64,000 bases of DNA from Thermoplasmata archaeon (GTDB taxonomy: Archaea > Thermoplasmatota > Thermoplasmata > Lutacidiplasmatales > UBA184): NCBI GenBank assembly GCA_035504395.1, contig DATJRX010000005.1, positions 3,334-67,333 on the forward strand, written 5' to 3'. A program made the translations under genes and the position numbers. Shown in pieces: positions 17,127 through 52,940 of the stretch; position 1 is the first letter of the stretch; each line of letters begins with the position of its first letter. The notes beneath the pieces are model-generated. The model ran no database searches. It had not been told where the DNA came from and was given only the letters and a program-made list of their open reading frames with translations.

Positions 17127-17207
17127 CCGGGAACGGTCCGAGGGCACGCCCTGCCCACGACGCCGCCGGACTCGCGCTCCGAGCGGCGGGCCTTCTCTCG
17201 GCTCGCG

Positions 17208-17728: not shown

Positions 17729-18220
17729 ATGGCGCTGATCCGCACGATCGTGGTGGCCGTCGACGGTTCAAAGAACGCGGACCATGCCTTCGAGACCGCG
17801 GTCGAGCTGGCCCGGATGTCCTCGGCGGCGCTCACCATCCTCGGCGTCGCACCTACCCACCGGGACTACACGGGCACCTATGGCGGGGTGCGGGCGTCCG
17901 ACCCCGAAGAACGCCGATGGTTCCGGGAGCTCCTCAGCCGGTACTCCAAGTCCGCCCGGGAGGGTGGGGTCTCGGAGATCTCGACGGAACAGTTCGAGGG
18001 TTCCCCGGTCGACTGCATCGTCACCTACTTGGAAGGCGCGCATCCGGATCTGGTCATCATGGGCGCGCGAGGACTCTCGACCACGCGTCGTCTCTTCCTC
18101 GGGAGCGTGAGCGAAGGCGTGCTCCACCATAGTACGTGCTCGGTCCTCATCGTCCGGTCGCCTCCGCCGAAGCCGGCCCGCGACCCGAAGCCGAGACGGA
18201 CCAAGTCGCCCAAGACCTGA
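17729..18220 (+). CDS. universal stress protein (UspA family)
   Basis: IVVAVDGS...A...A..LA ... DLVIMGARGLSTTRRLFLGSVSEGVLHHSTCSVLIV is the canonical UspA ATP-binding pattern G-x2-G-x9-G(S/T). Confidence 0.85.
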   Translation: MALIRTIVVAVDGSKNADHAFETAVELARMSSAALTILGVAPTHRDYTGTYGGVRASDPEERRWFRELLSRYSKSAREGGVSEISTEQFEGSPVDCIVTYLEGAHPDLVIMGARGLSTTRRLFLGSVSEGVLHHSTCSVLIVRSPPPKPARDPKPRRTKSPKT

Positions 18221-18247
18221 CCGCGCGACGCGAGAGGGCCCCGCTCC

Positions 18248-18676
18248 CTACGGGCCCACCGCGCGCTTCAGGAGGGCCGCGATCCTCACCTCGTCCGCCG
18301 GAGTGAGGCGCCGGATCGCGTAGGTGACCGGCCACATCTGTCCTTCGTCGAGCTTCGCCTCGTCGCTGAATCCCAAGGTGGCGTAGCGGACCTTGAACTT
18401 GGAGGCGGGCTGAAAGAAGCAGACGATCTCGTCATCCTTGGCATACGCGGGCATCCCGTACCACGTGCGCGACGACAGCGAGGGGACGGTCGACTTGATG
18501 AGGGCGTGGAGGCGCTCCCCGAGGGCTCGATCCGGGGGCGGCATTTCGGCGATCTTCTTGAGGACCTCGCGTTCCGCTTCGGCGCGCGAGGCGTTGGCCT
18601 TCAGCTCCTTCGCGCGCTCGCGCATCGCGGCGCGTTCCTCAGCCGTGAACCCCTGGGTCGACTTGCTTTCCGACAT
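18248..18676 (-). CDS. DUF1801 (YdhG-like) domain protein
   Basis: RTWYGMPAYAKDDEIVCFFQ...KVRYATLGF resembles YdhG/DUF1801-family proteins. Confidence 0.5.
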   Translation of the reverse strand: MSESKSTQGFTAEERAAMRERAKELKANASRAEAEREVLKKIAEMPPPDRALGERLHALIKSTVPSLSSRTWYGMPAYAKDDEIVCFFQPASKFKVRYATLGFSDEAKLDEGQMWPVTYAIRRLTPADEVRIAALLKRAVGP

Positions 18677-25512: not shown

Positions 25513-25736
25513 GGGGCTCCGACCGCCCCGAGGTCACCCCGCCGTAAAAGGCAGTGGGAGCACGCCGACCCTCGGCGGAGGTCGGCGGGTCCGCGGCGCC
25601 CGAGGGGTTTCGCTCTACGCCCCGGGCGCGTCCCATCCGAGGGTCGGCCCGCTACGGCCGAGCGAACCCCGACCCAACCCTCAAGACCCCCGGCCGACCT
25701 TGCAATGGTGAGGTCGCAGGGCCTCCGGGTTCTCCA

Positions 25737-27842
25737 GTGTCGCTCCTCCGTCCGGCGGGGCCGCCCGCGGCGATCGCGACCGCGATCGGGATCGCATTCG
25801 TGCTGGTCGTGGCGCTGTTCGCCCCAACCGTCCCGGCTGGCGGGGGCGCCAGTTCCTCCCGGGAGCCGACCGGTCCCGCGTCGGGACCGCCCGACCTGTC
25901 TACGAGCGACCTCGGCACCGGCTACGACGGGAGCGCGCCGGCATCGCCGCCCGTGCGGATCTGCGGGAACGGGTCCGAGCTCGACGGTCCGACCACTCCG
26001 CCCGACGGAGCGGTGGTCCTCCCGGCCGGCGACAACGAGAACATGACCGCGAGCTACGAGCTCGCTCCCAACACGACCTACTGGCTCGCCCCGGGGGCGC
26101 ACACCCTCGGGACCGGACCGTACTCCCAGTTCCAGCCCGACTGGGGCGACACGTTCGTGGGTGGGCCGGGCGCGGTCGTCAACGGTCAGTCCCTCAACCA
26201 GTTCGCCTTCACCGCGAACCCCAACGTCGGGTCGCCGAACGTCACGATCGAGTACCTCACGATCGAGGACTTCGTCTCGGGAGAGGGAGAGGGCGTGGTC
26301 AATCAGGCGAACCAATCCGGCTGGGTCGTCGCGCACAACACCGTCGGTCCGAACGAGTTCAACTGCTCGAACCCCGGGGGAGCCGGCGTCATGCTCGGCT
26401 CGAACACCGAGGTCGAGTACAACTGTCTCGCGAGCAACGGCGAGTACGGGTTCAGCTCGTTCGGCGGGGCGACGAACATCACGCTGTCGGACAACGAGAT
26501 CGCGGACAACGATGCCCTCGGGGGCTACGACCACCCCGACAGCGCGATCCAGTGCGGCTGCTCCGGTGGCGGGAAGTTCTGGATCTCGAGCGACGTCACC
26601 ATCGAGGACAACTACATCCACGATAACGGCGACCCCGGGATCTGGGTCGACACCGACAACACGGGGTTCCTCATCGCGCACAACTTCATCGCGGACAACT
26701 ACGCGGAGGGGATCATCTACGAGATCAGCTACAATGGCCTGATTGAGAACAACACGCTCCTCGGGAACGCGATCGGCGAGGCGCCCGAGGTCGCCGGGTT
26801 CCCGGCGTCCGCGATCTACATCTCCGAGTCCGGGTTCGACGACCGGGTCGCGAACCCGTTCCACGCGACGTCGTTCGAGATCGAGTACAACGTTCTCAGC
26901 GACAACCGGGGCGGGGTCGTCATCTGGGAGAACGCGAACCGATACTGCTCGGACGGCAGCGACCAGGTCTGCACGCTGGTCGATCCGGCCGTCTATACCC
27001 TCGCGAGCTGCGCCACCCACCTGGGCGAGCGAACGCCCGTCGACTATTACGACGGCTGCCGGTGGAAGGCCCAGAACGTGACGGTGGCCCGCAACCAGTT
27101 CTCCTTCACGGCGGCCGCGCTCGGACCCCAGTGCACGGTCGACAACCTCTGCGGGGACAACGGGCTATTCAGCGACTACGGCGAGGCGCCGTACGCGGGT
27201 CCGGCGGTCCCGACGAACATCACCTTCCTCCAGCACGACCAGTTCGAGGACAACAGCTACTCCGGACCGTGGAACTTCGAGGCCTGGAGCCAGGGCAACC
27301 TCGACAACCCGGTCAACTGGACCGTCTGGCGGGCGAACGTGACCGACCGATGCAGCACGGCGGGCGAGAACGAATCGGGCACCTGCGACAGCGGCTTCGG
27401 CCAGGACTCGGGGAGCATCTTCAACGCCTCCGTCGACCCCGAGATCGAGGCGTTCACCGCCGCGCCCGCGAGCGTTCCCGTCGGACATACGAGCCTCCTG
27501 ACCGTCACCGCCGAGGGCGGGATCGGCTCGCTGTCGTTCGCCTACGTCGGGCTTCCGCCCGGGTGCGCATCGGCGAACTTGGCCGAGCTCACCTGCGCCC
27601 CGACCGCTCCGGGCGATTTCACGCCCGCGATCTTCGTCAACGACTCCGAGGATCACTCGTCCGAGGCGAGCACCTCGCTCGCGGTGACGCGCGTCGCTCC
27701 GACGCCTTCTCCTCCGGGCCACTCGAGCGAGGCGCCCGGCGACCTCCTGTTCGGACTCTGGCCCTACCTGCTCGCCGCCGGCCTGGCGCTCGTCGCGGTC
27801 GTGGCCGCTGTGGCTTGGACGGCACGTCGCCGGAAGGTCTAG
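25737..27842 (+). CDS. right-handed parallel beta-helix repeat surface protein with C-terminal TM anchor
   Basis: Multiple pectate-lyase-like turns (NNTLLGNAIG, IADNYAEGIIYEIS, IHDNGDPGIWVD, SDNEIADND). An N-terminal signal-like helix and a C-terminal TM (LWPYLLAAGLALVAVVAAVAW) plus RRRKV. The start was set at the in-frame GTG 25737 before the signal peptide; the ORF extends to 25554. Confidence 0.7.
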   Translation: MSLLRPAGPPAAIATAIGIAFVLVVALFAPTVPAGGGASSSREPTGPASGPPDLSTSDLGTGYDGSAPASPPVRICGNGSELDGPTTPPDGAVVLPAGDNENMTASYELAPNTTYWLAPGAHTLGTGPYSQFQPDWGDTFVGGPGAVVNGQSLNQFAFTANPNVGSPNVTIEYLTIEDFVSGEGEGVVNQANQSGWVVAHNTVGPNEFNCSNPGGAGVMLGSNTEVEYNCLASNGEYGFSSFGGATNITLSDNEIADNDALGGYDHPDSAIQCGCSGGGKFWISSDVTIEDNYIHDNGDPGIWVDTDNTGFLIAHNFIADNYAEGIIYEISYNGLIENNTLLGNAIGEAPEVAGFPASAIYISESGFDDRVANPFHATSFEIEYNVLSDNRGGVVIWENANRYCSDGSDQVCTLVDPAVYTLASCATHLGERTPVDYYDGCRWKAQNVTVARNQFSFTAAALGPQCTVDNLCGDNGLFSDYGEAPYAGPAVPTNITFLQHDQFEDNSYSGPWNFEAWSQGNLDNPVNWTVWRANVTDRCSTAGENESGTCDSGFGQDSGSIFNASVDPEIEAFTAAPASVPVGHTSLLTVTAEGGIGSLSFAYVGLPPGCASANLAELTCAPTAPGDFTPAIFVNDSEDHSSEASTSLAVTRVAPTPSPPGHSSEAPGDLLFGLWPYLLAAGLALVAVVAAVAWTARRRKV

Positions 27843-30297: not shown

Positions 30298-30933
30298 TCA
30301 GGGAAGGGAGATCGAGACCTCGCCCGAGTACCCGTCCACCCCGAGCACCTCGAGCGTGTGGCCCTGGCCGAACGGGGAGGTCTTCGTGCTCCCGAACTGG
30401 ATCCAGATCGTGTCCTGGTTGGACACGAGCGAGCTCGCGGTGACCCCGCCGCCGTACCGCTCCCAGGCCGTGGTCTCGAACGCCTTGTTCTTCGCGATCG
30501 TCGAGGAGGCAAGGACCGAGTTCGTCGAGCCCACGAGCGAGATCAGCGCGGAGTTCATGCTGACCGTGTGGACGCGCCCGGTCGAGTCCGTCACCTGGAA
30601 CGCGAGGTTCGAGACCTTGAGCCCGTCCGACGCCTCGTCCACCGGGATGGCGTAGCAGTAGCGGCCCTCGGCGCAGTACGTCGACGGGTGTGCGCTGCCC
30701 GACACCTGCTCGGCCGGGCCGGCGTAGAAGGAGGACTCGAGCGGCTGGGACGCTCCCGAATGGACGTCCCCGACGATGAGCACGTAGAGCACCGCGGCCA
30801 GGACGACGGTGATCGCGACCAGCAGGAGCGTCGCGATGATGGGGGCGACGGCCCGTCCCCGAGCGTGGGGCCGGGCGAGCCCCCCCGATCGGCGGCCTCG
30901 GCGTGGGCGCTCGGCTGCGGCGGTCCCGGTCAT
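30298..30933 (-). CDS. archaeal type IV pilin-like protein (class III signal peptide)
   Basis: ATG confirmed at 30931-30933. RGRAVAPIIATLLLVAITVVLAAVLYVLI matches the archaeal pilin N-terminal motif ((R/K)G-x-S/A-P-V-I...L-x-x-I-T-V). A beta-rich Ser/Thr globular domain follows. Confidence 0.7.
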   Translation of the reverse strand: MTGTAAAERPRRGRRSGGLARPHARGRAVAPIIATLLLVAITVVLAAVLYVLIVGDVHSGASQPLESSFYAGPAEQVSGSAHPSTYCAEGRYCYAIPVDEASDGLKVSNLAFQVTDSTGRVHTVSMNSALISLVGSTNSVLASSTIAKNKAFETTAWERYGGGVTASSLVSNQDTIWIQFGSTKTSPFGQGHTLEVLGVDGYSGEVSISLP

Positions 30934-31022: not shown

Positions 31023-32987
31023 TCAGCCGCTCGAACGCGCCGGACGCACCAGGGGTCGCGTCGGGAGCCCATACTTTCGCAGCAGGTCCACGAACCGCGG
31101 GTCGGTGCGGATCGAGTCGAACGTGGCCGACCGGTAGTAGAGCCACAGCGTCGGATCCCCTTCGCGGTACTCCTTCTCGAGCAGGTCGAGGGCGATCGAT
31201 CCTTCGCCGAGGGCCGCGTGCAGCATCGCGAGGTGGGAGTCCGAGGTGTACGACTGGGTCTCGCCCCGGGCCGCCTCGGCGAGGATCTCGCGGGCGACCT
31301 TGGGCCGGCCGAGCACCGCGTTCAGCATGGCGTGATCGAACCGCTCGTTGTCGTCTGCCGGGGCGATCGCGACGTCGGCTTCGCGCGTCGCCTCGTCGCG
31401 GCGGCCGAGCTCGAGCAGCGTGAGGCCGAGCATCGTGTGCGGGGAGAGCGAGGTGGGTTCCCGCGCGATCCGGGCCCGGCCATGACGAACGCTCGCCTCG
31501 GGGTCGTCGGACGCCGACTCGGCCCACGCGAGGGTCCCCTCGTGCTCGCCGGCCGGGTCCAGGCGTACCGCAAGAGCCAGCTCGGCGCGCGCCTCGGCGA
31601 ACCGCTCGAGGGCGATCAGCATCAGCCCAAAGAACGTGTGCGCGTCGATGTTGCTGGGATTCAGCTCGATCGCCCGGCGGAACTCCCGCTCCGCGGTCGC
31701 CCAGTCATGATCGTACTGCATCGCGATGTTGCCGAGCGCGGCGTGGGCCTCCGCCGAGTCCGGGTCGAGCGCGAGGGCCTTCGCGGCGAGCTCGCGGGCG
31801 CGGGGGATCGCCTCCCGGAACGACAGGTGGTCGCCCGCCGCTCGCACGTAGAGGTTCGCCCACGAGGCGAACGCCTCGGCGAACTTGGGGTCGAGGCGGG
31901 TGGCGGCCTCGAACGAGCGCACCGCCTCGATGTGGTGCGCCGCGTCGAACCCGGACGAGGCGGCGAGTCCACGGAGGTAGAGGTCGTACGCCTCGAGGCT
32001 GGTGGTCGGCGGCCGGCGCGCGCGGGCCGGCTCCGACCGGGCCAGCTGCAATCGAAGCGCCTCGGCGGTCCGTTCGGCGATGTCCGACTGCACCTCGAAG
32101 ACGTCGGTGAGCTCCCGATTGTAGGTCCCGGCCCAGACATGCCGCTGGGTGCTCACGTCGATGAGCTGGAGCGTGATCCGGATCTTCTGTCCGGACTTCC
32201 GGACGCTGCCTTCGAGGACCGTGTCGACCCCGAGCTCCTGGCCGACCTGGGCGATCGACTTCGGCGCGGTCTTGTACGGCAGGATCGACGTCCGGGCGGT
32301 CACGCTGAGGCCCGGCACCTGGGAGAGGACCGCGATCAGCTCCTCCGTCAGCCCGTCGGCGAAGTACTCGTCGTGCGGATCCGGGCTGATGTTGGCGAGC
32401 GGCAGCACCGCGAGCTGGCGCCCCAACGACTCGGCCGCCATCCGACCCTCCTTGCGTACGGCCGCCCACGGGGGGACGACCCGGTACACCCCCATCGGCA
32501 CGCGGATGTTCTTGAGCGCGACGGGCGGCAGCCGGGTGAAGGTCGCCTCGAGCTTGTTCTGGATCTGGTCGTAGACCTGCTGGGTCACGCTGATCCCGCC
32601 CGGCTCGGAGAGCGGTTCCACGCGCGACGCGATGTTGACGGCATCCCCCAGCACGTCGCCGTCCGCCTGCACCACGTCCCCGACATGCAGCCCGATGCGC
32701 ACGAGGATCCGCTCGGAGGCGGGCAGCGCGGCGTTCCGCTCGTGGAGCGCTTTCTGCACGTCGAGCGCGCACTGGCCCGCGTCCAGGGCACTCTCGAACT
32801 CGATGAGGAACGCGTCCCCGACCGTCTTGATCTCGCGTCCGTGGTGGCGGGCGAAGATCGGGCGGAGCAGCGCGTTGTGCGTTTCGAGCGCCGAGAGCGC
32901 GGCGGCCTCGTCGGTCTGGGCGAGAGCCGAGTACCCCACCATGTCCGTGAACATGATGGCAGCCAAGCGGCGGTGCGAAGCGGCCAC
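31023..32987 (-). CDS. class III adenylyl/guanylyl cyclase (CHD) fused to TolB-N-like region and TPR repeats
   Basis: CHD metal-binding Asp residues in AIMFTDMVGYS and KTVGDAFL. Middle region LAVLPLANISPDPHDEYFADGLTEELI. C-terminal TPR-like helices. Start chosen at the GTG 24-30 nt downstream of the TTTATTT element; the ORF extends to 33119. Confidence 0.8.
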   Translation of the reverse strand: MAASHRRLAAIMFTDMVGYSALAQTDEAAALSALETHNALLRPIFARHHGREIKTVGDAFLIEFESALDAGQCALDVQKALHERNAALPASERILVRIGLHVGDVVQADGDVLGDAVNIASRVEPLSEPGGISVTQQVYDQIQNKLEATFTRLPPVALKNIRVPMGVYRVVPPWAAVRKEGRMAAESLGRQLAVLPLANISPDPHDEYFADGLTEELIAVLSQVPGLSVTARTSILPYKTAPKSIAQVGQELGVDTVLEGSVRKSGQKIRITLQLIDVSTQRHVWAGTYNRELTDVFEVQSDIAERTAEALRLQLARSEPARARRPPTTSLEAYDLYLRGLAASSGFDAAHHIEAVRSFEAATRLDPKFAEAFASWANLYVRAAGDHLSFREAIPRARELAAKALALDPDSAEAHAALGNIAMQYDHDWATAEREFRRAIELNPSNIDAHTFFGLMLIALERFAEARAELALAVRLDPAGEHEGTLAWAESASDDPEASVRHGRARIAREPTSLSPHTMLGLTLLELGRRDEATREADVAIAPADDNERFDHAMLNAVLGRPKVAREILAEAARGETQSYTSDSHLAMLHAALGEGSIALDLLEKEYREGDPTLWLYYRSATFDSIRTDPRFVDLLRKYGLPTRPLVRPARSSG

Positions 32988-33006
32988 GATCCCCGGACGG
33001 CGCTCC

Positions 33007-33025
33007 GGCGAAATAAACGCTCGCC
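33007..33025. promoter_or_regulatory. GGCGA-AATAAACGC-TCGCC palindromic TATA-like element between divergent cyclase genes
   Basis: 5-bp inverted arms flank an AT-rich core. It sits 24-30 nt upstream of the candidate GTG start (32987) of the minus-strand cyclase. Confidence 0.4.
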
Positions 33026-33128
33026 GGGATGCTGAAACGGGGCGGGACCCGGCCGTCCGGCCGGCGCGGGCTCCGGTCGCCCGGGGGAGGTCGTCGCCCC
33101 GCGGGAGACGTCGGCGCACGCACGCCTA

Positions 33129-35147
33129 ATGAGGCCGGGTTCGGTCCCCCGATCCGTGGCGCGGGAGTCCCGTCGGCTCGCCGCGATCATGTTCACCGAC
33201 CTCGTGGGGTTCACGTCCCTCGGCCAGCGCAACGAGGGAGAGGCGCTCCGCCTCCGTCGGGAGCATCAGGAGATCGTCCGACCCCTCCTCGCGGCGCACG
33301 GCGGTCGGGAGGTCAAGACGACCGGCGATGGGTTCCTCGTCGAGTTCCCGAGCGCCGTGGAGTCGGTCCGCTGCGCGGTCGAGATCCAGGGCGCCGTCGG
33401 GCGACGGAACGCGCTCGCCGGATCCGCAGAGCCGATCCGGCTCCGCATCGGCATCCACGTGGGCGACGTCGTGGACGACGCCGGCGACATCGTCGGCGAC
33501 GCGGTGAACGTCGCGTCCCGGATCGAACCGCTCGCGGAACCGGGCGGCGTCTGCGTCTCGGGCTCGGTGTACGACCAGGTGCGCAACAAGCTCGAGGTGC
33601 CGCTCGAGCGGGTCGGCACGCGCGAGCTGAAGCACGTGGAGTTCCCGGTCGACATCTACCGGGTCCGGCTCGGCGAGACGTTCGAGCCGCGAGAGCGGGT
33701 CGTCGAGCCGGGACCGGACGCGCGCCCGCGCCTGGCCGTGCTTCCGATGGCCAACTTGAGCCCGGATACCGCGGACGATTACTTCGCGGACGGGCTCACC
33801 GAGGAACTGATCTCCCAGACCTCGAGGATCCCGGACCTCCGCGTCATCGCCCGGACCTCGGTACTGCAGTACAAGGGGTCGACGAAGCCGCTCCGCACCG
33901 TGGCCCACGAGCTCGGCGTGGGGCTCGCGCTCGAGGGGTCGGTGCGCAAGTCCGGCGACCGCCTCCGCGTGACCGTCCAGCTGGTCGACGCGCGCTCCGA
34001 GGAACATCTCTGGTCGTCGCGCTACGACCGGCCGCTCGGCGACATCTTCGCGATCCAGGACGATATCGCGCAGCAGGTCGCCGCCTCGATGGCCGCCCAC
34101 ATGACCGGGCGGGGCGCTGCTCCGGGGCGCCGGGTCCTCCCGGCGGTCCGCGACACGACGGACCTTCGGGCGTACACCGCCTACCTGCACGGCCGCAAGC
34201 TCCTCTCCGAGAAGGATTCGGAGACGACCGTGGCGCGGGCCGTCGAACTGTTCGAGGAAGCGGAGCGCATCGATCCGAATTTCGCGCGCGCCCGCGTCGC
34301 CCGGGCCGAGGCCCTGATGTGGCTCATGAACGAGGGCGCGGTCCCGTTGCTCGACGGCGAGAAGGAGGTGCGCACGGAGCTCGCCCGGGCCATCGAGCTC
34401 GACGCCTCGCTGGCGGAGGCGCACGCCGCGCTCGCCGGCCTCCTCCTCGGGACCGACGAGCTCGCGGCGTCCGAGCGCGAGAGCCGCCGGGCGATGGAGC
34501 TCAACCCGAACGTCATCGACTCGTACCGGTGGCTCGCCCAGATCGCGGCGGGTGATGGGCGCCTGGACGAGGCGGCGCGGCTGCTCGAGACCGCGGTCCA
34601 GATCGACCCCCTCGACATCAACATCCTCGCCTTCCTCGGCCGGATCTACTTCTACGCCGGGCACATCGATCGCGCGCTCGAGCATTGGAAGCGCACGGAG
34701 ACGCTCGTGCCGTACCGGACGCAAGCACACCGGGCGGAGTACGCGCTCTCGATCGGGGACCTCGACGCGGCGCAGACCTACGTCCGCGACCTGGAGCGGC
34801 TGCGACCGGAGAGCGTGTGGACCGAGGTCTACCGCGGGGCGCTCGCGGCCCGCCGCGGCCGTCCGGAGGAGACGCGCGCCGCGATCGAGCGCCTCGAACG
34901 CCGGGGCCAGACGGGCGAGATGACCGCGCTGTTCACCGGCGCGCTCTACCACGCCCTCGGGGAGGACGACGCGTTCGTGCGCTGCATGGAGGAAGCGTTC
35001 GACCAACACTCGTTGCCGTTCCTGGAGCTCCTGTACTCGCCCCTCTACGAGCGCGCCCGCGCCGACCCCCGGATCCGCGCCCTGATCGAGCGCCAGCGGG
35101 CGCTGCGCACGGCCGAGGGGGATACCCCCCCGCGCCGAACGCCTTAA
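33129..35147 (+). CDS. class III adenylyl/guanylyl cyclase-TolB-N-like-TPR protein (paralog of 31023..32987, divergent)
   Basis: AIMFTDLVGFTS, KTTGDGFLVEF and LAVLPMANLSPDTADDYFADGLTEELI, then C-terminal TPRs. About 45% identity to the neighbour across the cyclase domain. Confidence 0.85.
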   Translation: MRPGSVPRSVARESRRLAAIMFTDLVGFTSLGQRNEGEALRLRREHQEIVRPLLAAHGGREVKTTGDGFLVEFPSAVESVRCAVEIQGAVGRRNALAGSAEPIRLRIGIHVGDVVDDAGDIVGDAVNVASRIEPLAEPGGVCVSGSVYDQVRNKLEVPLERVGTRELKHVEFPVDIYRVRLGETFEPRERVVEPGPDARPRLAVLPMANLSPDTADDYFADGLTEELISQTSRIPDLRVIARTSVLQYKGSTKPLRTVAHELGVGLALEGSVRKSGDRLRVTVQLVDARSEEHLWSSRYDRPLGDIFAIQDDIAQQVAASMAAHMTGRGAAPGRRVLPAVRDTTDLRAYTAYLHGRKLLSEKDSETTVARAVELFEEAERIDPNFARARVARAEALMWLMNEGAVPLLDGEKEVRTELARAIELDASLAEAHAALAGLLLGTDELAASERESRRAMELNPNVIDSYRWLAQIAAGDGRLDEAARLLETAVQIDPLDINILAFLGRIYFYAGHIDRALEHWKRTETLVPYRTQAHRAEYALSIGDLDAAQTYVRDLERLRPESVWTEVYRGALAARRGRPEETRAAIERLERRGQTGEMTALFTGALYHALGEDDAFVRCMEEAFDQHSLPFLELLYSPLYERARADPRIRALIERQRALRTAEGDTPPRRTP

Positions 35148-45001: not shown

Positions 45002-45460
45002 TCACGGGCCCGGGAACCGGTCGAGGCGCTCCTCGATCGAGTCGCCGCACACCTCGGCGAGCCGTCGGGCCCATCCGTAGAGGCCCTCGACGTGGACGAG
45101 CTCGCCGCGCACGATCCGCGCGAGGCGCCGGCGGTACTCGAGGTCGAGCGACGGCCGGTCCGCTTCGAGGAACTCCTTGAGCCGCCGGGCGAAGTGTCCT
45201 CCTTCGGTGTCCCAGTCCGTGAGCACGATCACGCGCGCGGCCCGGTCGACGAGGTCGTGCGCGGTCCCGCTCAGCGGCCGCCCGCGGTGCAGCGCGACGA
45301 TACGGCCGTCGATCCCGAGGCGGCGGAGCGAACGTCGGTCCCGTTCGCCTTCCACGACGACGACCGTGCCGGGCTCGCCGGACTCCGCGCGGAGATCGTG
45401 CCAGAGCTTCAGGAACTCCTCGAGCGTGTCGCGGGCGGTCGGACGGACGCGGAGCGGCAT
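45002..45460 (-). CDS. small Toprim-domain protein
   Basis: The conserved Glu of VVVVEGERD and the DxD of VIVLTDWDTEGG match the Toprim signature. Internal M (MPLRVRP) taken as the start. Confidence 0.55.
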   Translation of the reverse strand: MPLRVRPTARDTLEEFLKLWHDLRAESGEPGTVVVVEGERDRRSLRRLGIDGRIVALHRGRPLSGTAHDLVDRAARVIVLTDWDTEGGHFARRLKEFLEADRPSLDLEYRRRLARIVRGELVHVEGLYGWARRLAEVCGDSIEERLDRFPGP

Positions 45461-45662
45461 CGGTGCGGACCGGGGGCCTCGCCCTCCGCCGGGGACCGAC
45501 GGGAGGGCGAAGATAACCCCGCCGACCCTCGGTCCGCTCGCGGACGCCCCGAGCGACCCGCCGCGTCCGACCGTCGTCGCCGCCATTCCCGGGCGCGTCC
45601 CCGGCGCGACCGCGAAGTTCCTATACGCGCGCGCGTCTCGCGCCTCTCCCCGAAGGTCTCGG

Positions 45663-46328
45663 ATGCCCGACCACTACACGCAGCTGCTGGAGTGGCGACG
45701 CACCGAGGCGTCCGTGCGGGGCCTCGCGAAGCTCCCGCACGACTTCTACCGGACCACGACGGCCTACCTCACCGAGATGCGGGCGAGCTACGAGGCCGAG
45801 CTCCGGGAGAACCCATCGAGCCGCAAGGGCGAGATCCTCCGGCAGACCTACCAGCGGGCGACGCAGGTCGCGCGGGACGTGATCGAGGCGCGCGCGCAGA
45901 AGGTGATGACCGCGGCGTTCCAGGCGTCGATCGGGGGCGCGAAGGAGCTGCCGAACGCCCTCCCCGAGGAGCGCGCGATCTTCGACGCGATGCTCGGGAC
46001 GCTCTCCGACCATCGTCGCGCGTCCGCGCCGTATCTCGAGCCGCACGCGCCCGCCGCCGCGGGCCCCGCGCCCCGCAAGCCCGAGCCGGCGGCCGTCGCC
46101 GCCCCGGCGCCCCCGCCGGGCGCCCCGAGCGCGCGGCCCCCCCGGGCGCCGGGACCGTCGACCTGGGTGCGCATCCTGCAGGGGGGCCGCCGCGTCGAGC
46201 TCGGTTCCGAGACGATCGATCTCCGGACGGACGATGTGCTCTCCCTGCCCGCCGAGCAGGCGAAGCTCCTGATCGACGCGAAGGTCGCCGAACCGGTGCA
46301 GGCGTCCGCGCCCGTCCCCGCTACGTAG
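45663..46328 (+). CDS. putative GINS subunit (Gins51/Gins15-like) DNA replication protein
   Basis: N-terminal LLEWRRTE..L..LPHDFYRTTTAYLTEMR resembles the archaeal Gins51 A-domain. A small C-terminal beta domain follows an Ala/Pro-rich linker. TATA-like TTCCTATAC lies about 37 nt upstream. The assignment is tentative. Confidence 0.45.
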   Translation: MPDHYTQLLEWRRTEASVRGLAKLPHDFYRTTTAYLTEMRASYEAELRENPSSRKGEILRQTYQRATQVARDVIEARAQKVMTAAFQASIGGAKELPNALPEERAIFDAMLGTLSDHRRASAPYLEPHAPAAAGPAPRKPEPAAVAAPAPPPGAPSARPPRAPGPSTWVRILQGGRRVELGSETIDLRTDDVLSLPAEQAKLLIDAKVAEPVQASAPVPAT

Positions 46329-47316
46329 CCGGCGGGCGCGCCGCGAGCTCGAGCACCCGGAACCGCTCGAAGCCGAACAGCAGATTCTTCGCGGCGAGCC
46401 GCAGGCGGACCTCGGCTTCCGCCGAGCCGGCGCTCTTCAGCGCCGCGTCGAGCAGCGCGGGGAATCCCCACTCCCCGAGCGCCTCGGCCTGGGAGCGGAA
46501 CGCGATCTCGGTGAGGCCGCTGCCCCGGGCGACCGCCCGGACCCGGGAGAAGTTCACGAACATCGATAGGTCCGAGGTGCCGGGCGCCTCGAACGGGGCC
46601 TCGAGCGACCGATGCCCCCGGACGGCGGCGAGGGTGCCGCGGGGATGCGCCGCGAGCAGCTCGGGTTCCTCGAGGCCGTAGTCGATAAGGATCGCGACCC
46701 CCGCGGCGAGGTGATCGCCGATCTCGCGCACGGCCGCCTCCGCCCCCGCGGAGACCTCGACGACCGTCCCCGCCTCGAGGTGGATCGGCAGCGCGGGACC
46801 GGGCACGGCCCGGTCCATCGGCCGGTCCGCGGGCCCGAGGCCGTCCCCTCGCAGTTCCACGCCGAGCTCGCGCCAGTAGCTCCCGTCCCAGAGGAGCCGC
46901 CGGGCGGGTTGCGCATCGAGGTACTCGTTGGCGATCACGGCGCCGGCGAACGGCCCGTCGGCTCCGAGCGACGGGAGTCGCACCACCCGAACCGTTGCGG
47001 AGGTCGCGCGGATCCGATGCGCCGCCTCCGCCGCCCGGGCCTCCGAGCGCTCGACGAGGGCGTACTCGAGCTCCGCCTCCTCGGGCCGAAGGGCGGAGAC
47101 GATCCCGGCGGCGAGGGTGCCATCGCCCGGCCCGAGCTCGACGATGCGGAACGGGCGGGCGGCGATCGACGCGCGAACCGCCCCGATCCGCTGGGCGAGC
47201 GACCGCGCGAACAGCGGCGAGACGTGGGCCGCCGTGTAGTAGTCGCCCATCGGCCCGAGCGGCGAGCGGGCCGCCGAGTAGTAGCCCGCGACCGGGTCGT
47301 AGAGGGCGATCTCCAT
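46321..47316 (-). CDS. DUF185/MidA-family (NDUFAF7-like) SAM-dependent methyltransferase
   Basis: FMEIALYDPVAGYY, IVELGPGDGTLAA and ANEYLDAQP are hallmarks of DUF185. ATG confirmed at 47314-47316; a possible GTG extension reaches 47427. Confidence 0.75.
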   Translation of the reverse strand: MEIALYDPVAGYYSAARSPLGPMGDYYTAAHVSPLFARSLAQRIGAVRASIAARPFRIVELGPGDGTLAAGIVSALRPEEAELEYALVERSEARAAEAAHRIRATSATVRVVRLPSLGADGPFAGAVIANEYLDAQPARRLLWDGSYWRELGVELRGDGLGPADRPMDRAVPGPALPIHLEAGTVVEVSAGAEAAVREIGDHLAAGVAILIDYGLEEPELLAAHPRGTLAAVRGHRSLEAPFEAPGTSDLSMFVNFSRVRAVARGSGLTEIAFRSQAEALGEWGFPALLDAALKSAGSAEAEVRLRLAAKNLLFGFERFRVLELAARPPAT

Positions 47317-47444
47317 GAACCGGTCGAACGGGACGAAGCCCGAACCGTCCTGGGCCGCGCGCAGCCGCGCGCGGATCCGGTCCGTCCGCGACGCGCGGTC
47401 CGGGTCCGGGGAAGGGACGGCCGCCACGCGCGTCCGCTCCCCGA

Positions 47445-48227
47445 TCAGCCGATGTAGCCCAGGTCCTCGCGGGCCGCCGGGCCCGGCGAGGTCGTGCCCT
47501 CGGAGTGCTGCTCGGCCTCGTGGATCTTCTGGGCGATGCGGTCGATCTCCTGGGCCTTGGCCTGGAGCGCCGCGAAGTCGATCGGAAGCTGGAGCGCCTG
47601 GGTCAGGACCTTGAGGACCGCTTCCGCGGCCCGGGGGTCGACGAAGTAGCCGCTCGTCTCGCCCATGAGGCAGACCCCCTCCATGCCGAACAGCCGGCCG
47701 AGCCCGAGGAAGAGGCCGCTCGCGCCGATGAGGCCGCCGCCCGGGTCGTTCCGCGAGAAGACGACGTTGAACTTCTTCATCGCCTCGACCTGGGCCGGCG
47801 CGGTGGCCGCGCCGAGGACCCGCGGGGCGTCGACGATCCGGCCCTGTGCGAACCCGGCGAGCGTGAAGACGGTGCGGACGCCGAGGCCGCGGCAGAAGTC
47901 GAGCACGCGCTCGGTGATCTCGTACTGGCCCTCGGGGCTGATCCCCTGGTAGTCGCCCCCCAGGATCAGGAGGTCGTGCTCGGCGGTCGCGGGCGCCCTC
48001 CAGTACGCGAGCTCGTTCGAGACCAGGCGGATGATGCCGGTCTCGGAGACGTACACCTGCGGCGGGAAGAACTTCGAGAAGATCGTGGCGAGCGGCTTCG
48101 CGGCGAGCTGGTCGCGGAGGTAGTCGGCGGCGAGCTTTCCGACGTTGCCGACGCCCGGCAGTCCCTCGATCAGGATCGGGTCGCGCAGCGCGACCTTCTC
48201 CAGCGGCCGGATGACGACGTCCTCCAC
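47445..48227 (-). CDS. PAC2-family proteasome assembly chaperone-like protein
   Basis: LIEGLPGVGNVGKLAADYL ... LLILGGDYQ is the PAC2/DUF75 pattern. Confidence 0.7.
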   Translation of the reverse strand: MEDVVIRPLEKVALRDPILIEGLPGVGNVGKLAADYLRDQLAAKPLATIFSKFFPPQVYVSETGIIRLVSNELAYWRAPATAEHDLLILGGDYQGISPEGQYEITERVLDFCRGLGVRTVFTLAGFAQGRIVDAPRVLGAATAPAQVEAMKKFNVVFSRNDPGGGLIGASGLFLGLGRLFGMEGVCLMGETSGYFVDPRAAEAVLKVLTQALQLPIDFAALQAKAQEIDRIAQKIHEAEQHSEGTTSPGPAAREDLGYIG

Positions 48228-48290
48228 GGTGGCTCCTCCGTTCCGAGCGGACCGGCGAGGATAAAGCCTCGCTGGCGGCCGGGTAGGCCG

Positions 48291-49055
48291 CTATCCCGGG
48301 CTCCGCTCGCCCGGTCCGGTCGCCCAGCCGTTCTCCGCTACGTGGAGGCGGACGATCCGGCCGAGATCGGGGCGGTTCGCGACCTTCTGGATCTGCAGCT
48401 CGTGCTCGTAGCGCTCGCCTCGCGGCTCGCTCTTCAGCTCGAAGACGAGATCCGAGAGGTCGTGGAGGAGGCCGTACATCGCCCGGTCGTGGCCGATCGA
48501 GTGCGCGGTGAGCAGCGCCTGGCCGCCGATCGTGCGGCACCGGTGCCGGATCTGGCGGGCGACGGTCGTCACGTCGTGGGGCTCGAGGACCTCGAGGAAG
48601 AAGTCGACCGAGTCGAGCACCAGCCGGAACGGGTGGTCGATCTCGGCGAGGTCGCTCAGCATGCGGTTCGTGAGGCTGAACGATTTCGGCGGCGTCGCCT
48701 GGTTGCGCGCGACGACCAGCTCGTCGAGCGAGATCCCCTTCTCGCGCGCCCGGGCGATGTCGAGCCCGTGGACGAGCACGCGCTCGTAGTACTCGTCGGC
48801 GAGGTTCACCACCTTGATCTCGGACGGGTCCCAGCCGAAGTCGGTGAACGCCTTCGTGACGTCCTCGGTCCGCTCGAACGTCGTGTAGAACAGGACCGGG
48901 ACGCTGCCGACGCCGGCGTGCGCGAACTGCTTGGCGAGCAGCGGCGCCCCCGAGCCGGACGAGCCGGTGAGGAGCGCGAGCCATCCCGGAGGGAGCGCCG
49001 GCCACAGCGCGCCGTCGATCTCGGGCATCCCGAGGATGCGCTCGTCGTCCCCCAC
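48291..49055 (-). CDS. KaiC-like RecA-superfamily protein with degenerate Walker A (GSSGSGAP)
   Basis: KaiC-like features FGWD and LVLDSVDFF (Walker B) are present, but the P-loop reads LLTGSSGSGAPLL and lacks Lys-Thr/Ser. Confidence 0.65.
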   Translation of the reverse strand: MGDDERILGMPEIDGALWPALPPGWLALLTGSSGSGAPLLAKQFAHAGVGSVPVLFYTTFERTEDVTKAFTDFGWDPSEIKVVNLADEYYERVLVHGLDIARAREKGISLDELVVARNQATPPKSFSLTNRMLSDLAEIDHPFRLVLDSVDFFLEVLEPHDVTTVARQIRHRCRTIGGQALLTAHSIGHDRAMYGLLHDLSDLVFELKSEPRGERYEHELQIQKVANRPDLGRIVRLHVAENGWATGPGERSPG

Positions 49056-49057
49056 GG

Positions 49058-49636
49058 CTAGCGGCCCCGCCCGACGTCGATCGTCTCGTCGACCAGGAGG
49101 TTCAGCATCTGCTCGATCCCCGTCGCCTCCTCGTCCGAGGTCTCGAGGACGACCGCGAGCACGTTGCGGCTCTTCAGGTTCGTCAGGAAGATGTGGAAGA
49201 ACTCGTTGAGGAGGTCGACCGGGTTGTGAATCGCGAGGGCGTTCACGCTGTCGATCACCACGATCGAGCGGGGGTGCGGGAACTTCCGCAGCAGGTAGTC
49301 GACCCGCAGCATGATCTCCTCGAGCGCCCGCGGGGTCTCGATGTACGTCGAGTTCGGGAGCGGGTTCGAGTAGTTCATCATGATGTGGCTGATCGCGTCG
49401 ACGAACGAGATCCGGTCCGCCGGCACGTCGAGCGCCTGCGCGAGCGACCAGACGAACGCGGCCGGGTTCGTCACGGTGACGTAGATCGTGTGCGCGTTGG
49501 TCTCGCTGCCGACGTCCCGCAACGTCGCGTTCAGGACCGCGAAGTAGTGGTCCGCGTACTCGCGGGGATCCAGCTTGAGCGCGACCGCGCTCCCGCCGGG
49601 CAACGACCGCAGCCGGTCCCCGATGTCCGCCGGCAT
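49058..49636 (-). CDS. KaiC-like RecA-superfamily protein lacking the P-loop
   Basis: Aligns with the neighbouring KaiC-like genes (IYVTVTNPAAF...ADRISFVDAIS...IVVIDSVNALAI), but the Walker A segment is replaced by LDPREYADHY. Confidence 0.55.
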   Translation of the reverse strand: MPADIGDRLRSLPGGSAVALKLDPREYADHYFAVLNATLRDVGSETNAHTIYVTVTNPAAFVWSLAQALDVPADRISFVDAISHIMMNYSNPLPNSTYIETPRALEEIMLRVDYLLRKFPHPRSIVVIDSVNALAIHNPVDLLNEFFHIFLTNLKSRNVLAVVLETSDEEATGIEQMLNLLVDETIDVGRGR

Positions 49637-49645
49637 CGAGCGACC

Positions 49646-50449
49646 CTACTCCTCCGGGTTCTGGCCCTTGAGGTGCGGCGCCATCAACATCCCGATCGGC
49701 GTCAGCTCGATGACGTACTGGGCCCGCGAGTGCGTCGTCCCGCGCATCTTCACGATCTGGAGCACGCGCAGGATGTCGCCCTGCCGCCGGGTGTTCCAGA
49801 GGAGGATCACGCCGTCGACGATCGCTTCCTCGACCCCGTGGAGCGAGTAGCGGCCGGCCTGCGGTCCGATCTCCGACACGAGGAGCGAGGTGCAGCCGAG
49901 CTCGGTCAGCGTCTGGCCGAGGCGGAGCATGAAGTCCCGGATCCGCTCGTCCCGACGGATCCGGTAGCAGACCGACGTCAGCGAGTCGAGGACGAGCCGC
50001 TTCACGCCGAGCGAGGCGACCAGGTCCCGGATCGTCCGGATCAGGATGTCGATCTCGTCGGCCGTGAGCTCCTCGTGCTCGAGGCCGAGCTTGTCGTAGA
50101 TCGCGGGGAGATCGACGAACACGAGCGAGCCGATGTCGATCAGGTCCCGCCGGAAGAACTCGAACGTCGAGAGGTTCTGGATCAGCTTCGCGGACGCCTC
50201 GGTCACGGAGAGGAAGAGCGAACGCTCCCCCCGTTCCGCGCCGCGGACCAGGAACTCGAGGCTCAGCGTCGTTTTCCCCGTCCCGACCGACCCGGCGACC
50301 AGGACCATGTTCCCGCGCGGGATCCCGCCGCCCAGCACGTTGTCGAGGCCCTCGATGCCGGTGGCGCAGCGCTCCAGCACCGCGGCCGGCGCGAGCAGCG
50401 GCCGGGGGGGACCGTCGGGCGGGGCGGCCGTCTCCGGCGGAGCCTCCAT
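49646..50449 (-). CDS. KaiC-like RecA-superfamily ATPase with intact Walker A/B
   Basis: TGIEGLDNVLGGGIPRGNMVLVAGSVGTGKTTLSLEF (Walker A) and RLVLDSLTSV (Walker B). Internal M (MEAPPET) taken as the start; the ORF extends to 50620. Confidence 0.8.
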   Translation of the reverse strand: MEAPPETAAPPDGPPRPLLAPAAVLERCATGIEGLDNVLGGGIPRGNMVLVAGSVGTGKTTLSLEFLVRGAERGERSLFLSVTEASAKLIQNLSTFEFFRRDLIDIGSLVFVDLPAIYDKLGLEHEELTADEIDILIRTIRDLVASLGVKRLVLDSLTSVCYRIRRDERIRDFMLRLGQTLTELGCTSLLVSEIGPQAGRYSLHGVEEAIVDGVILLWNTRRQGDILRVLQIVKMRGTTHSRAQYVIELTPIGMLMAPHLKGQNPEE

Positions 50450-50489
50450 CGAGAAAACGAGCGAGCCCGAGCCTAAGAGCGTATCGTTT

Positions 50490-52940
50490 CTATCCGCGGT
50501 CGGGACCGTCGTCCGACCGCCCCTCCGCCCCCGGCTCCGGGGGCCCGACGAGGCGCGCGGGATCGATCCACCAGCACGCGCCCCGCGCGTCGCGACCGGT
50601 CGAGAGGAGCGCCCCTTCACGGCGGAGCGCGTCGCCCGTCGCCCGCACCGCCGCGCCGGTCGGGTCGACCTCGTGGCGCAGCTCGGCCAGCGAGATCTTC
50701 AGCGGACGGTCCCGCGGAGCCGCGCGCGCGCGCTCCGCGAGGGCTCGCCGCACGCGATCCTCGGGCGCGTCCGCCGACGCGGCGGAGCCGGGGGCCAGGA
50801 CGCCAGGGTCGGCCGCCGCCGTCGCGCCGGGGGATGGGGCCGGAGCGGGGGGCCCACCCGCCGGAGCCGGTCGGCGGGCGGTGCGGAGTCGGAGGACCTC
50901 CTGTCCCTTCCCGAGCAGAACCACGGCCTCTCCGCGGGGCAACGACACGAGGGCTCCCGGCTCGGCCCCCCGGACCGAACGCGCGAGCTCGCGCGCCTCC
51001 CCGGGGGAACCCCGGAACGCGACGAAGTCCGCGACGTTCGTCCAGATCGCCTCGGCGACGCCCTCCGGCAGCGATCCGATCGACTGCGTGGCGAGCACGA
51101 CGTGCACGTTGCGACGGCGGGCGAGGCGCAGCATTTCGGCGAGGCTCTCGTGACCGAACCACTGCGCTTCGTCGAGCACGACCCAGGTCTTCGGGGTCCC
51201 GGGGCGTGCCAGCAGCTCGTTCCAGACCAGGGCGAGGTACACCGACATGAGGTAGCGCGCGGTCGACTCTCCGACGTCGCGCGCGTCTCCGGCGATCAGG
51301 ACGACCCGGCCCTCACCGACCAGGTCCTCGGCCCAGAGCTCAGGGGACCGCGCGCACAGCATGCGAACGAGCGTGGGGCTGCGGACCACCTCGTGGAGGA
51401 GGCGCCGGGCGCCATCGGCGTCCTCGGGACGGTGTCGGATGCGGTCGGCGAGCTCCCGAACGGCCTCCATCGCCTCGGGCGGCACTCCGCGAGTTCCGCG
51501 GCCCTCGGCGGCGAGCAGCGCGTGCGCGTCGACGAGCGTTCCGTCGGGCATCGCCGCCGCCGCCCGAAGGGCCCTCGTCAGCATCTCGTCGAGGCGGGGT
51601 CCCCAGAACGCCCCGCTGGAATACCGGCCTTCCCGCACGAGGCGCAGGGCGTGCACCAGGTCGTTGACCTGGCGCTCGGCCCGGCCTCCGTCCGCGGCGT
51701 CGCGGACCAACGAGCGGCCGAGCGCGTTCAGCCCCCCCACCGACCGAGTGTCGATCCAGGTCAGCCGGTCCCGCGCGGCCGGGGGGAGGTCGTCCCGCAC
51801 GGCCCGCGCGGTCTCCCCGAGCGGGTCGAGCAGCACCAGGCCTCCCCGGCTCGCGGCTCGCCGGGCGAGCACGACGAGCAGGGAACTCTTGCCCATCCCC
51901 GTCTCCCCCACGATCGCCAGGTGCCGACCCTGGTGAGGCTCGGAGGGAGCGCGCACGATCTGGCCGTCCGAGGTCCGCCCGAGCGGAAGGCCGTCGGCCT
52001 CGGAGAGGTCGGCGCCGAGTCCGGGGCATCGATCCGTGGGGAACGTCGCGAGCAGGTCGACCTCGGGAAGGGGGAACGCCGGACCTCGGCGGCCATGCCA
52101 GGGTCGGAATCGGGAGAACCGGAGCCCGTTCCCTTCGGCGGTCCGGGTGGCCGACTCCCAGGAGCGCGCGGAGGCCCGGAGCTCGAGCGGGGACCGCGCC
52201 GGGTCGGTGCGCCGAAGCCGAAGCCGGCTCTCCCACACCGGGCGCAGGTCCGGCGCCGGCTCGGGCCGGGCCATCGACGGGCGGGGGATCGGGCGGGTCC
52301 CGGGCGGCAGCGTTCGGTGATCGATCGAACCGACCGGTTCCGGTCTCGACGGGCTGGCCGCCAGCCGCGTCGGCCGGCTCGACCACGCGAGCTCGAGTCC
52401 CGGCGGCAGGAGCGACGCCTGCTGCACGACGGCGTCCATCAGCGCGACGACCCCGGCCGACCGGCCGATCAGCGGCTCGGGCCAGGCGCGGGCAGGGGTC
52501 GCGAACCACTCCCACGGACCCGGCGCATCCCGCTCACCTGACGGCGCCGGTTTCCACTGGCCGGGGGGATACACCGGCAGCAGCACCCGGATCCACCATC
52601 GGGCGGCCGCGGCGTCGCCGGGCCGGAAGGTGAGGCCGGCGGGTCGGCCGGACCGGATCCTCCACTCGAACGAGACCCCCGCCCCGTGCGCGGCCCGAAC
52701 GGCGAGCGCGAGCTCCCGCGGATACGGTTCGCGGTCCGACGGCCGGCGATCGTCCGAGGGCAGCGATCGGAACCGCCAGGCCGGGACCGATGTCGTGCGA
52801 GGACCGGTGTCCGGGTCCACGCCGCTCGCTGACGGCCGGCTCGAAGAATCCGTCGGGGTGGGCGGACGGTGAAGCGTGCCCATCGCCACCCTCAAGTGGC
52901 CGCCCGCGTGGGACCGGCTTCGGGTCCGGTCGCATGTCAT
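50490..52940 (-). CDS. HerA/FtsK-like (DUF87) P-loop ATPase with long N-terminal extension
   Basis: HLAIVGETGMGKSS (Walker A), LLDPLGE (HerA DPxGE motif), VVLDEAQWF (Walker B) and VLATQS (sensor). Coordinates are the maximal ORF. The true start must be internal, because the first ATG would overlap the divergent DRG gene; candidates are M168 at 52439 and M223 at 52274. Confidence 0.65.
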   Translation of the reverse strand: MTCDRTRSRSHAGGHLRVAMGTLHRPPTPTDSSSRPSASGVDPDTGPRTTSVPAWRFRSLPSDDRRPSDREPYPRELALAVRAAHGAGVSFEWRIRSGRPAGLTFRPGDAAAARWWIRVLLPVYPPGQWKPAPSGERDAPGPWEWFATPARAWPEPLIGRSAGVVALMDAVVQQASLLPPGLELAWSSRPTRLAASPSRPEPVGSIDHRTLPPGTRPIPRPSMARPEPAPDLRPVWESRLRLRRTDPARSPLELRASARSWESATRTAEGNGLRFSRFRPWHGRRGPAFPLPEVDLLATFPTDRCPGLGADLSEADGLPLGRTSDGQIVRAPSEPHQGRHLAIVGETGMGKSSLLVVLARRAASRGGLVLLDPLGETARAVRDDLPPAARDRLTWIDTRSVGGLNALGRSLVRDAADGGRAERQVNDLVHALRLVREGRYSSGAFWGPRLDEMLTRALRAAAAMPDGTLVDAHALLAAEGRGTRGVPPEAMEAVRELADRIRHRPEDADGARRLLHEVVRSPTLVRMLCARSPELWAEDLVGEGRVVLIAGDARDVGESTARYLMSVYLALVWNELLARPGTPKTWVVLDEAQWFGHESLAEMLRLARRRNVHVVLATQSIGSLPEGVAEAIWTNVADFVAFRGSPGEARELARSVRGAEPGALVSLPRGEAVVLLGKGQEVLRLRTARRPAPAGGPPAPAPSPGATAAADPGVLAPGSAASADAPEDRVRRALAERARAAPRDRPLKISLAELRHEVDPTGAAVRATGDALRREGALLSTGRDARGACWWIDPARLVGPPEPGAEGRSDDGPDRG

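Follow-up and report, generated by a model that had tools for sequence, protein, structure and literature searches.

The 64,000-nucleotide (nt) stretch analysed here (positions 3,334 to 67,333 of contig DATJRX010000005.1, assembly GCA_035504395.1; 'the window' in what follows) derives from a soil metagenome-assembled genome (MAG) of a Thermoplasmata archaeon and has a GC content of ~71%. Between positions 46321 and 52940 it carries six co-oriented genes on the minus strand, which encode a HerA-like ATPase, three KaiC-like paralogues (KaiC1, KaiC2 and KaiC3), a PAC2-family protein and a methyltransferase (Table 1). An earlier sequence-only reading, whose domain calls are correct for all six genes, had grouped them as a single operon that could encode one heteromeric machine, and the gaps between them are indeed small (40, 9, 2, 63 and 17 nt, from the ATPase towards the methyltransferase). 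The explanation that we favour, with moderate confidence, is instead that three adjacent units lie side by side, and that the KaiC proteins probably form a heteromeric complex tied to type IV pilus-like filaments.

Table 1. Features of the window and median amino acid identity of in-lineage homologues to the window proteins (aa, amino acids).
Feature	Position	Strand	Basis	Median in-lineage identity
HerA/FtsK-superfamily P-loop ATPase ('HerAL'), 797 aa	50490..52883	-	public pipeline call, AlphaFold2 (AF2) model	47%
KaiC1, single-domain KaiC-like ATPase, 267 aa	49646..50449	-	Pfam KaiC, Walker A GSVGTGKT and Walker B	81%
KaiC2, truncated RecA/KaiC-fold putative pseudo-ATPase, 192 aa	49058..49636	-	AF2 model, Foldseek, hhalign	83%
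KaiC3, full-length KaiC paralogue, putative pseudo-ATPase, 254 aa	48291..49055	-	Pfam KaiC, hhalign	68%
PAC2-family protein (proteasome assembly chaperone-like, PbaA/PbaB type)	47445..48227	-	Pfam, NCBIfam	80%
Methyltransf_28 (DUF185; NDUFAF7/MidA-type S-adenosylmethionine-dependent methyltransferase)	46321..47427	-	Pfam PF02636	56%
TATA-like box CTCTTAGG before KaiC1	50472..50479	-	conserved element, promoter inferred	
TATA box CTTTATCC before PAC2	48259..48266	-	conserved element, promoter inferred	
Lone type IV pilin precursor	30298..30933	-	pilin hidden Markov model (HMM), Pfam Pilin_N, class III signal peptide	
DRG GTPase				80%
Ribosomal protein L15e				81%

Within the trio, KaiC1 is a clear member of the Pfam KaiC family (PF06745; 1e-55, 189 bits against a cutoff of 26.6), matches KaiC (1.8e-54) and PH0186 (5e-38) among PDB sequences, and has intact Walker A and Walker B motifs. 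KaiC3 also passes the Pfam cutoff (3e-11, 43.6 bits) and aligns with KaiC1 over its full length (hhalign probability 98%, E-value 1.8e-13), with GSSGSGAP standing opposite the GSVGTGKT of KaiC1 and the Lys-Thr pair of the P-loop lost. KaiC2, at 23.3 bits, falls under the same cutoff, scores above the cutoff of no Pfam or NCBIfam family and has no P-loop, although a Walker-B-like DS is retained. Its relationship to KaiC1 is detected by hhalign (E-value 3.7e-4), and its AF2 model (predicted local distance difference test score, pLDDT, of 92) is a compact KaiC/RecA fold, for which Foldseek returns PH0284 (query TM-score, TMq, of 0.71-0.73), SSO2452 (0.66), the KaiC CI domain and RecA. Judged by these motifs, KaiC1 is the predicted sole catalytic member of the trio.

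The P-loop loss of KaiC2 and KaiC3 is common to orthologues in other lineages. When orthologues from within and from outside the lineage of the window are counted together, a canonical Walker A motif (GxxGxGK[ST]) is found in 145 of 146 KaiC1 sequences, as against 1 of 167 for KaiC2 and 1 of 118 for KaiC3. Because these counts hold across both sets of orthologues, the design of one active to two inactive members appears to be old and maintained rather than a product of recent decay. The extent of sequence conservation in KaiC2 is similar to that of ribosomal protein L15e (median identity 83% versus 81% across 80 species), so that the description of the trio as 'one active, two decayed' holds for the motifs but not for the decay; KaiC2 and KaiC3 are better regarded as putative conserved pseudo-ATPases. 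Inactivated KaiC homologues are reportedly a recognised theme.

Outside the lineage of the window, in other Thermoplasmata (two of them named Methanomassiliicoccales), only KaiC1-KaiC2(-KaiC3) stays together. In Methanomassiliicoccales and related loci (L088, L089, L090) the order is KaiC1-KaiC2-Pilin_N, and in two further loci (L091, L093) all three KaiC genes are followed by two Pilin_N genes, with start/stop overlaps of 4 nt within the module in L088, L090, L091, L093, L174 and L176. The invariant core is KaiC1-KaiC2, usually with the 4-nt overlaps that are typical of subunits made in a fixed ratio. A metagenome scan with a profile that excluded the window lineage added 80 loci, annotated by HMMs built from the loci in hand, and in nearly all of these the module KaiC1-KaiC2(-KaiC3) has between one and three co-oriented pilin genes after it. 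Where at least 700 nt of downstream sequence was available, such pilin genes (one to three Pilin_N, same strand) lie within 900 nt in 56 of 62 loci, while the HerA-like ATPase, PAC2 and methyltransferase genes occur within 8 kb in none of the 62; across about 90 loci outside the lineage, the trio is never accompanied by any of these three genes. The trio-adjacent pilins are bona fide class III signal-peptide proteins. KaiC1-KaiC2-KaiC3 is best read as an old operon of the Thermoplasmata whose genes are tightly coupled.

When 1.84 billion representative proteins were searched with a KaiC2 profile by full HMMER, 605 relatives were returned, which fall into a group of stand-alone proteins of ~190 aa with the motifs ESPTMLE (ESPxxLE), DSxNxLxIHN and EFLHI (EFxHI), and a remoter group in which a degenerate KaiC domain, of the DUF7504 or DUF835 type, forms the C terminus of giant TPR/SNAP and Ig-like proteins. 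In examples of the latter (P0163, P0174, P0180; locus L177) a DUF7504-type domain ends proteins of 900-1800 aa with SNAP/TPR and Ig-like (CARDB, NPCBM_assoc, BatD) regions; one giant protein of this kind comes from a Candidatus Altiarchaeota MAG, and another relative is fused to DUF835. The idea that the giant TPR/Ig-like protein of L177 serves as a docking adaptor gained no support, as it has no KaiC1-like neighbour. Cultured hosts were sought by a profile search with distant KaiC2 relatives, the best 120 matches of which are all uncultured MAG or metagenome proteins.

Within the lineage, scanning a single genome for each GTDB species brought up 102 KaiC2 relatives, all of them in named Thermoplasmata MAGs (UBA184 and UBA61 included) bar one deposited as 'bacterium', and gene order was read by tblastn with 13 window proteins in the best 80 of the 102 loci. 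As far as each contig reaches, the order is the same in all 80, and it is kept in each of the 52 loci that span DRG through the methyltransferase. The gene order is therefore not unique to this genome; in the loci examined outside the lineage, the ATPase, PAC2 and methyltransferase genes do not travel with the trio. Moreover, the entire 13-gene block (PurF-Nop5-fibrillarin-DRG-ATPase-KaiC1-2-3-PAC2-methyltransferase-orf221-Toprim-L15e) is equally syntenic, so that synteny inside the lineage cannot single out the six genes; it would reflect shared descent, and was rejected as uninformative evidence for an operon. The arrangement is also kept in the sister lineage (L092, the nearest outgroup), where, however, a gene for a 1103-aa beta-helix protein (3.3 kb) stands between the ATPase and KaiC1.

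Also significant are the conserved promoter-like boxes at two of the gene junctions. Upstream of KaiC1, the box CTCTTAGG lies 23-30 nt before the ATG, within a conserved element (...CTCTTAGG-N-GGCTCGTTT-N-CG-ATG; gap 50450-50489) that abuts or overlaps the ATPase stop codon. The consensus of this element, CC(T/A)C(T/A)TAGGG...GGCTCGTTT..CG-ATG, overlaps the ATPase stop in most species, in which that stop lies ~23 nt from the KaiC1 start. Seventy-one in-lineage loci keep the element, including those in which the ATPase does not end at its TAG; in the window, where the stop is 17 nt further upstream than in most species, it is still retained. In other lineages, boxes resembling the archaeal B recognition element (BRE) and TATA box ('GAAACAATAATATG' and 'AAAACCCTAAAGGG') are found at about the same distance before KaiC1. 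Before PAC2, the box CTTTATCC lies 32-39 nt from the GTG start, with a BRE-like purine-rich stretch upstream of it and a GGAGG Shine-Dalgarno sequence at ~48233-48239, and the KaiC3-PAC2 spacer (48228-48290) contains AACCGA(A/G)CCTTTATCG in nearly all of ~75 in-lineage loci, ~32-40 nt before PAC2 and followed by GAGG. This second element has the appearance of a textbook archaeal BRE/TATA plus Shine-Dalgarno arrangement. Since such boxes precede both KaiC1 and PAC2, three transcription units (the ATPase; KaiC1-2-3; PAC2-methyltransferase) are likely, and the boxes argue against the single operon that had been deduced from gene spacing.

In view of these observations it is quite improbable that the cluster as a whole, or even just the ATPase with the KaiC trio, is transcribed as one operon and encodes a single heteromeric ATPase machine that serves in DNA processing, defence or proteostasis, despite the common strand, the narrow gaps, the order kept in all 52 spanning loci and in L092, and the closeness of the ATPase stop to the KaiC1 start in most species. 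The same synteny extends to the whole 13-gene block, the junctions before KaiC1 and PAC2 carry their own conserved boxes, and the ATPase is separated from the trio by the 3.3-kb gene of L092. Evolutionary rate and codon bias also differ strongly between the ATPase and the trio (Table 1), the ATPase gene having a GC content at third codon positions (GC3) of 0.88, compared with 0.94-0.99 in the trio genes and in PAC2. Finally, unrelated conserved contexts of the neighbours had been named by the sequence-only reading itself as telling against a six-gene system, and outside the lineage the neighbours of the KaiC genes are type IV pilin genes, with none of the other partners in the ~90 loci described above.

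The gene inserted in L092 (5852-9163) is of the beta-helix/NosD type, as is a 762-aa protein of the window (25554-27842, plus strand; right-handed beta-helix with a hydrophobic C-terminal stretch). In a few in-lineage loci KaiC1 is separated from the ATPase match by a much longer gap (~1.7 kb in L067, 5519-7227; >200 nt in L039), which hints at further insertions at this junction.

At archaeal loci for type IV pili and archaella, KaiC-family ATPases are known as regulators, and from this, together with the pilin genes that directly follow the operon in most other lineages sampled, a pilus-linked regulatory role is suggested for the trio. KaiC1, KaiC2 and KaiC3 would join in one heteromeric complex of RecA folds, in the simplest case a ring, in which only KaiC1 would bind and hydrolyse ATP and in which KaiC2 and KaiC3 would act as structural or adaptor subunits; such a complex would most likely regulate, or signal to, surface filaments of the type IV pilus kind in a nucleotide-dependent manner. 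A strong association of KaiC arCOGs with type IV pili and archaellum loci of archaea has been published (Makarova, Koonin & Albers 2016, PMC4858521), and genetic work in Haloferax connects the KaiC-like protein CirA with the pilin-mediated control of motility (PMC10983859). The claim that the locus is 'not a described system' was, given the former report, overstated.

Compared with the KaiC ATPases at those loci (arCOG01171/01174/01175; ArlH/FlaH; CirA), KaiC1 is likewise a single-domain protein with intact Walker motifs, and the orthologous modules of other Thermoplasmata likewise lie directly upstream of pilin genes. The window differs in having three translationally coupled paralogues in a fixed ratio of one active to two inactive, a KaiC2 that is a 190-aa truncated form, no adjacent pilus ATPase or platform gene, and no adjacent pilin. 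The trio fails the NCBIfam cutoffs for archaeal KaiC subfamilies. The score against the ArlH/FlaH model NF052589 is 38.5 bits (cutoff 215), and there are no arl genes in the neighbourhood. Features of the circadian KaiC of KaiABC are similarly lacking: only a single domain is present, the scores are 151 bits versus 408 for NF006799 and 101 versus 546 for TIGR02655, and no KaiB-type gene is found among the called genes within about 10 kb of the trio.

Several findings weigh against three independent units with a pilus-linked KaiC complex. The same wider surroundings (M48 peptidase, PHP, OMPdecase-RraA, module, RDD, Tsr3, MCM) are found at most of the loci that have a pilin, and because this synteny is common to most of them, many of the 56 are not independent. 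The divergent loci L174, L175 and L176 keep the trio or the KaiC1-KaiC2 pair without an adjacent pilin, a pilus assembly ATPase or platform gene was found beside the module in none of the loci examined, and in the window, as in its whole lineage, no pilin adjoins the trio; the nearest one in the window is 17 kb away. Read-through from the ATPase gene into the trio may occur, and the adjacency of ATPase and trio, held in all in-lineage loci and in the sister, could reflect a lineage-specific functional link. Conservation at a housekeeping level would also fit a general signalling or other core role.

This last point bears on an alternative that we consider unlikely, in which the trio serves as a signalling hub of a general KaiC type, or as a housekeeping regulator, with no connection to pili, and the pilin adjacency is inherited synteny without functional meaning. 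It would accommodate a module as conserved as ribosomal proteins and placed among information-processing genes, the missing adjacent pilins of the window lineage, L174 and L176, the one context shared by most pilin-positive loci, and the occurrence of KaiC2-like domains at the end of giant TPR/Ig-like, sensor-type proteins; in addition, the pilin genes lie 100-260 nt downstream of the module and may have promoters of their own. Pilin adjacency, however, recurs in at least three flanking contexts (that of L091, that of L115/L162/L173, and the majority context OMPdecase-RraA...RDD-Tsr3-MCM), and it fits the published association of KaiC with type IV pili (PMC4858521).

The pilus-linked reading can be carried further, to an obligate hetero-hexameric ring of RecA folds built from KaiC1 as the catalytic subunit and KaiC2 and KaiC3 as pseudo-ATPase subunits, which would be a core regulator in much of the Thermoplasmata, would couple nucleotide state to pilus-like filaments and would here have been rewired to a lineage-specific HerA/VirB4-like translocase in place of adjacent pilins; in this full form it is doubtful. 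If it were true, the ring would match Elp456 or the Rad51-paralogue complexes in design, as their counterpart in archaea. With those eukaryotic complexes the trio shares the idea of several RecA-fold paralogues, mostly with degenerate sites, in one assembly, and we regard the likeness as an analogy and not as specific homology. Matches to Elp-type Pfam families are weak (40 bits to PAXNEB/Elp4 for the L088 KaiC1 orthologue; E-value 0.097 for Iki1/Elp5). The Elp4 match spans the P-loop region only, and among the structural matches of the KaiC2 model Elp456 stands in 38th place (TMq 0.53 versus 0.71-0.73 for PH0284), on which grounds homology to Elp456 was rejected.

Rad55-Rad57, BCDX2 and the Shu complexes also mix active and inactive RecA folds, and the trio could be imagined as a recombination mediator of the RadA/Rad51-paralogue type, working on DNA with the HerA-like translocase adjacent to it in this lineage. 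The KaiC2 fold does match SSO2452, PH0284 and RecA, KaiC1 has weak matches to RadA, RadB and RecA profiles, the ATPase belongs to a DNA-translocase fold group and ends in a domain that resembles a winged helix by eye, and Toprim and replication-type genes lie nearby. Such a role is nonetheless highly unlikely, as the best profile and PDB matches are to KaiC, not to RadA or RadB, and what is conserved beside the module in other lineages are pilins and not repair genes.

What is gained, in our view, is the removal of a tempting and apparently false six-gene machine and, in its place, a cleaner object: an operon of one active KaiC and two putative pseudo-ATPases that is very conserved, translationally coupled, common among Thermoplasmata without cultured members and in most cases adjacent to pilin genes. 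To our knowledge, heteromeric KaiC-type complexes with fixed pseudo-enzyme subunits have not been biochemically characterised in archaea. Such a complex would provide a concrete test of the proposal that KaiC-like ATPases are signalling hubs. KaiC2 and the HerA-like ATPase, furthermore, represent families claimed by no curated Pfam or NCBIfam model.

For the ATPase, the maximum open reading frame of 816 aa, which extends to 52940, would overlap the start of the divergent DRG GTPase gene at 52934, and public pipelines call the shorter protein of Table 1. Its AF2 model (36-sequence alignment; pLDDT 81) has four parts: an N-terminal alpha/beta region (residues ~35-290), a motor domain (~300-668) with Walker A (GETGMGKSS, at 326) and Walker B (VVLDEAQ, at 568), a disordered linker (675-703), and a C-terminal helix/strand domain (707-779) that looks like a winged helix, an assignment made by eye from the secondary structure. 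The unfamiliar N-terminal domain of ~200-340 aa to which the sequence-only reading had drawn attention is a real folded region of ~300 aa, partly conserved, with W96, R99, W110 and P135 invariant and pLDDT mostly >80 over residues 60-170 and 215-290. The motor-domain fold and its Walker motifs place the protein in the FtsK-HerA superfamily, in the fold group of HerA, VirB4, VirD4 (TrwB) and DndH; this similarity is at the superfamily level only and equal for HerA, VirB4, TrwB and DndH. The label 'HerA-like' is accordingly sound for the fold group and unsound for HerA proper, for which the model NF040937 gives 15.5 bits against a cutoff of 800. Compared with the members of this branch, the window ATPase has a unique N-terminal alpha/beta region and C-terminal winged-helix-like domain, and it is found without type IV secretion system genes, without Dnd or MADS partners and, as had been noted, without NurA, Mre11 or Rad50 genes within about 10 kb of the cluster.

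A sequence search with the ATPase gave 231 homologues, and the 120 matches listed all come from Thermoplasmata MAGs or soil metagenomes, under the NCBI name 'DUF87 domain-containing'; more distant relatives were also sought in this way, and the matches listed belong to the same Thermoplasmata MAG group only. Among the matches listed, then, the ATPase appears to be lineage-specific, and with a median in-lineage identity of 47% it is fast-evolving. It is predicted to be active and probably translocates DNA or another polymer. A partnership with the KaiC trio is not supported.

The profile and structural matches of the ATPase invite the thought that it is a domesticated defence or mobile-element gene of the mad8/DndH kind that landed beside the trio in the ancestor of the lineage: PADLOC mad8 matches at 3.7e-19, the top structural match is DndH-C, the homologues listed are confined to the lineage, evolution is fast and GC3 is lower. 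Defence genes are usually patchy in their distribution, however, and this gene has a fixed position in every species of the lineage in a housekeeping context, with no effector or other mad/dnd genes nearby; among the five neighbouring genes the sole PADLOC match is a weak one of mad8 to the P-loop of KaiC1 (0.0015). Such an origin is therefore scarcely probable. A defence system was likewise rejected for the locus, since only the ATPase resembles mad8/DndH, the partner genes are absent, and the locus is fixed and of housekeeping character.

The remaining two genes of the cluster belong to well-defined families, archaeal PAC2 (PbaA/PbaB) and the NDUFAF7/MidA type, and both pass the curated cutoffs: the PAC2 gene with Pfam PAC2 (1.1e-52, 179 bits) and NCBIfam TIGR00162 (262.6 bits versus 200), and the methyltransferase, which starts 17 nt after PAC2, with Pfam PF02636 (3e-39, 135.4 bits versus a gathering score of 23.3). 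Their pairing and their placement beside the KaiC trio are found only in the window lineage and its sister, and together they probably form a separate unit, functionally apart from the trio.

The cluster is set among housekeeping genes. On one flank are ribosomal L1/L10/P1, PurF, Nop5, fibrillarin and the divergent DRG GTPase, and on the other an unannotated 221-aa gene, a Toprim protein, L15e, a SpoU methylase, FtsY and prefoldin. The window is archaeal, and proteins identical to its KaiC2 are encoded on contigs from soil and peat metagenomes and in MAGs that NCBI lists as 'Thermoplasmata archaeon'. The 221-aa gene (45663-46328, plus strand) matches no Pfam family, is convergent with the 3' end of the methyltransferase gene, which it overlaps by 8 nt, is kept across the lineage with a median identity of 59%, and adjoins the small Toprim-domain gene (45002-45586).

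The lone pilin precursor is the sole pilin-like gene found in the window (HMM 3.6e-10; Pfam Pilin_N 26.7 bits versus 25.2) and has the class III signal peptide RGRAVAPIIATLLLVAITVVLAAVLYVLI; its similarity to the trio-adjacent pilins is mostly limited to the N-terminal helix. One of its neighbours is a small gene that looks glyoxalase-like by eye, and the other is a cyclase-TPR gene. The latter belongs to a divergent pair (31023-33119, minus strand, and 33129-35147, plus strand) encoding proteins of ~700 aa with an N-terminal adenylate/guanylate cyclase domain (Pfam Guanylate_cyc, 5e-19 and 1e-16) followed by TPR repeats, an architecture that seemed unusual for an archaeon. In the Methanomassiliicoccales MAG locus L088, a type III-A (Csm) CRISPR effector cluster (12634-18570) lies ~3 kb downstream of the KaiC1-KaiC2-pilin module and is probably unrelated to it.

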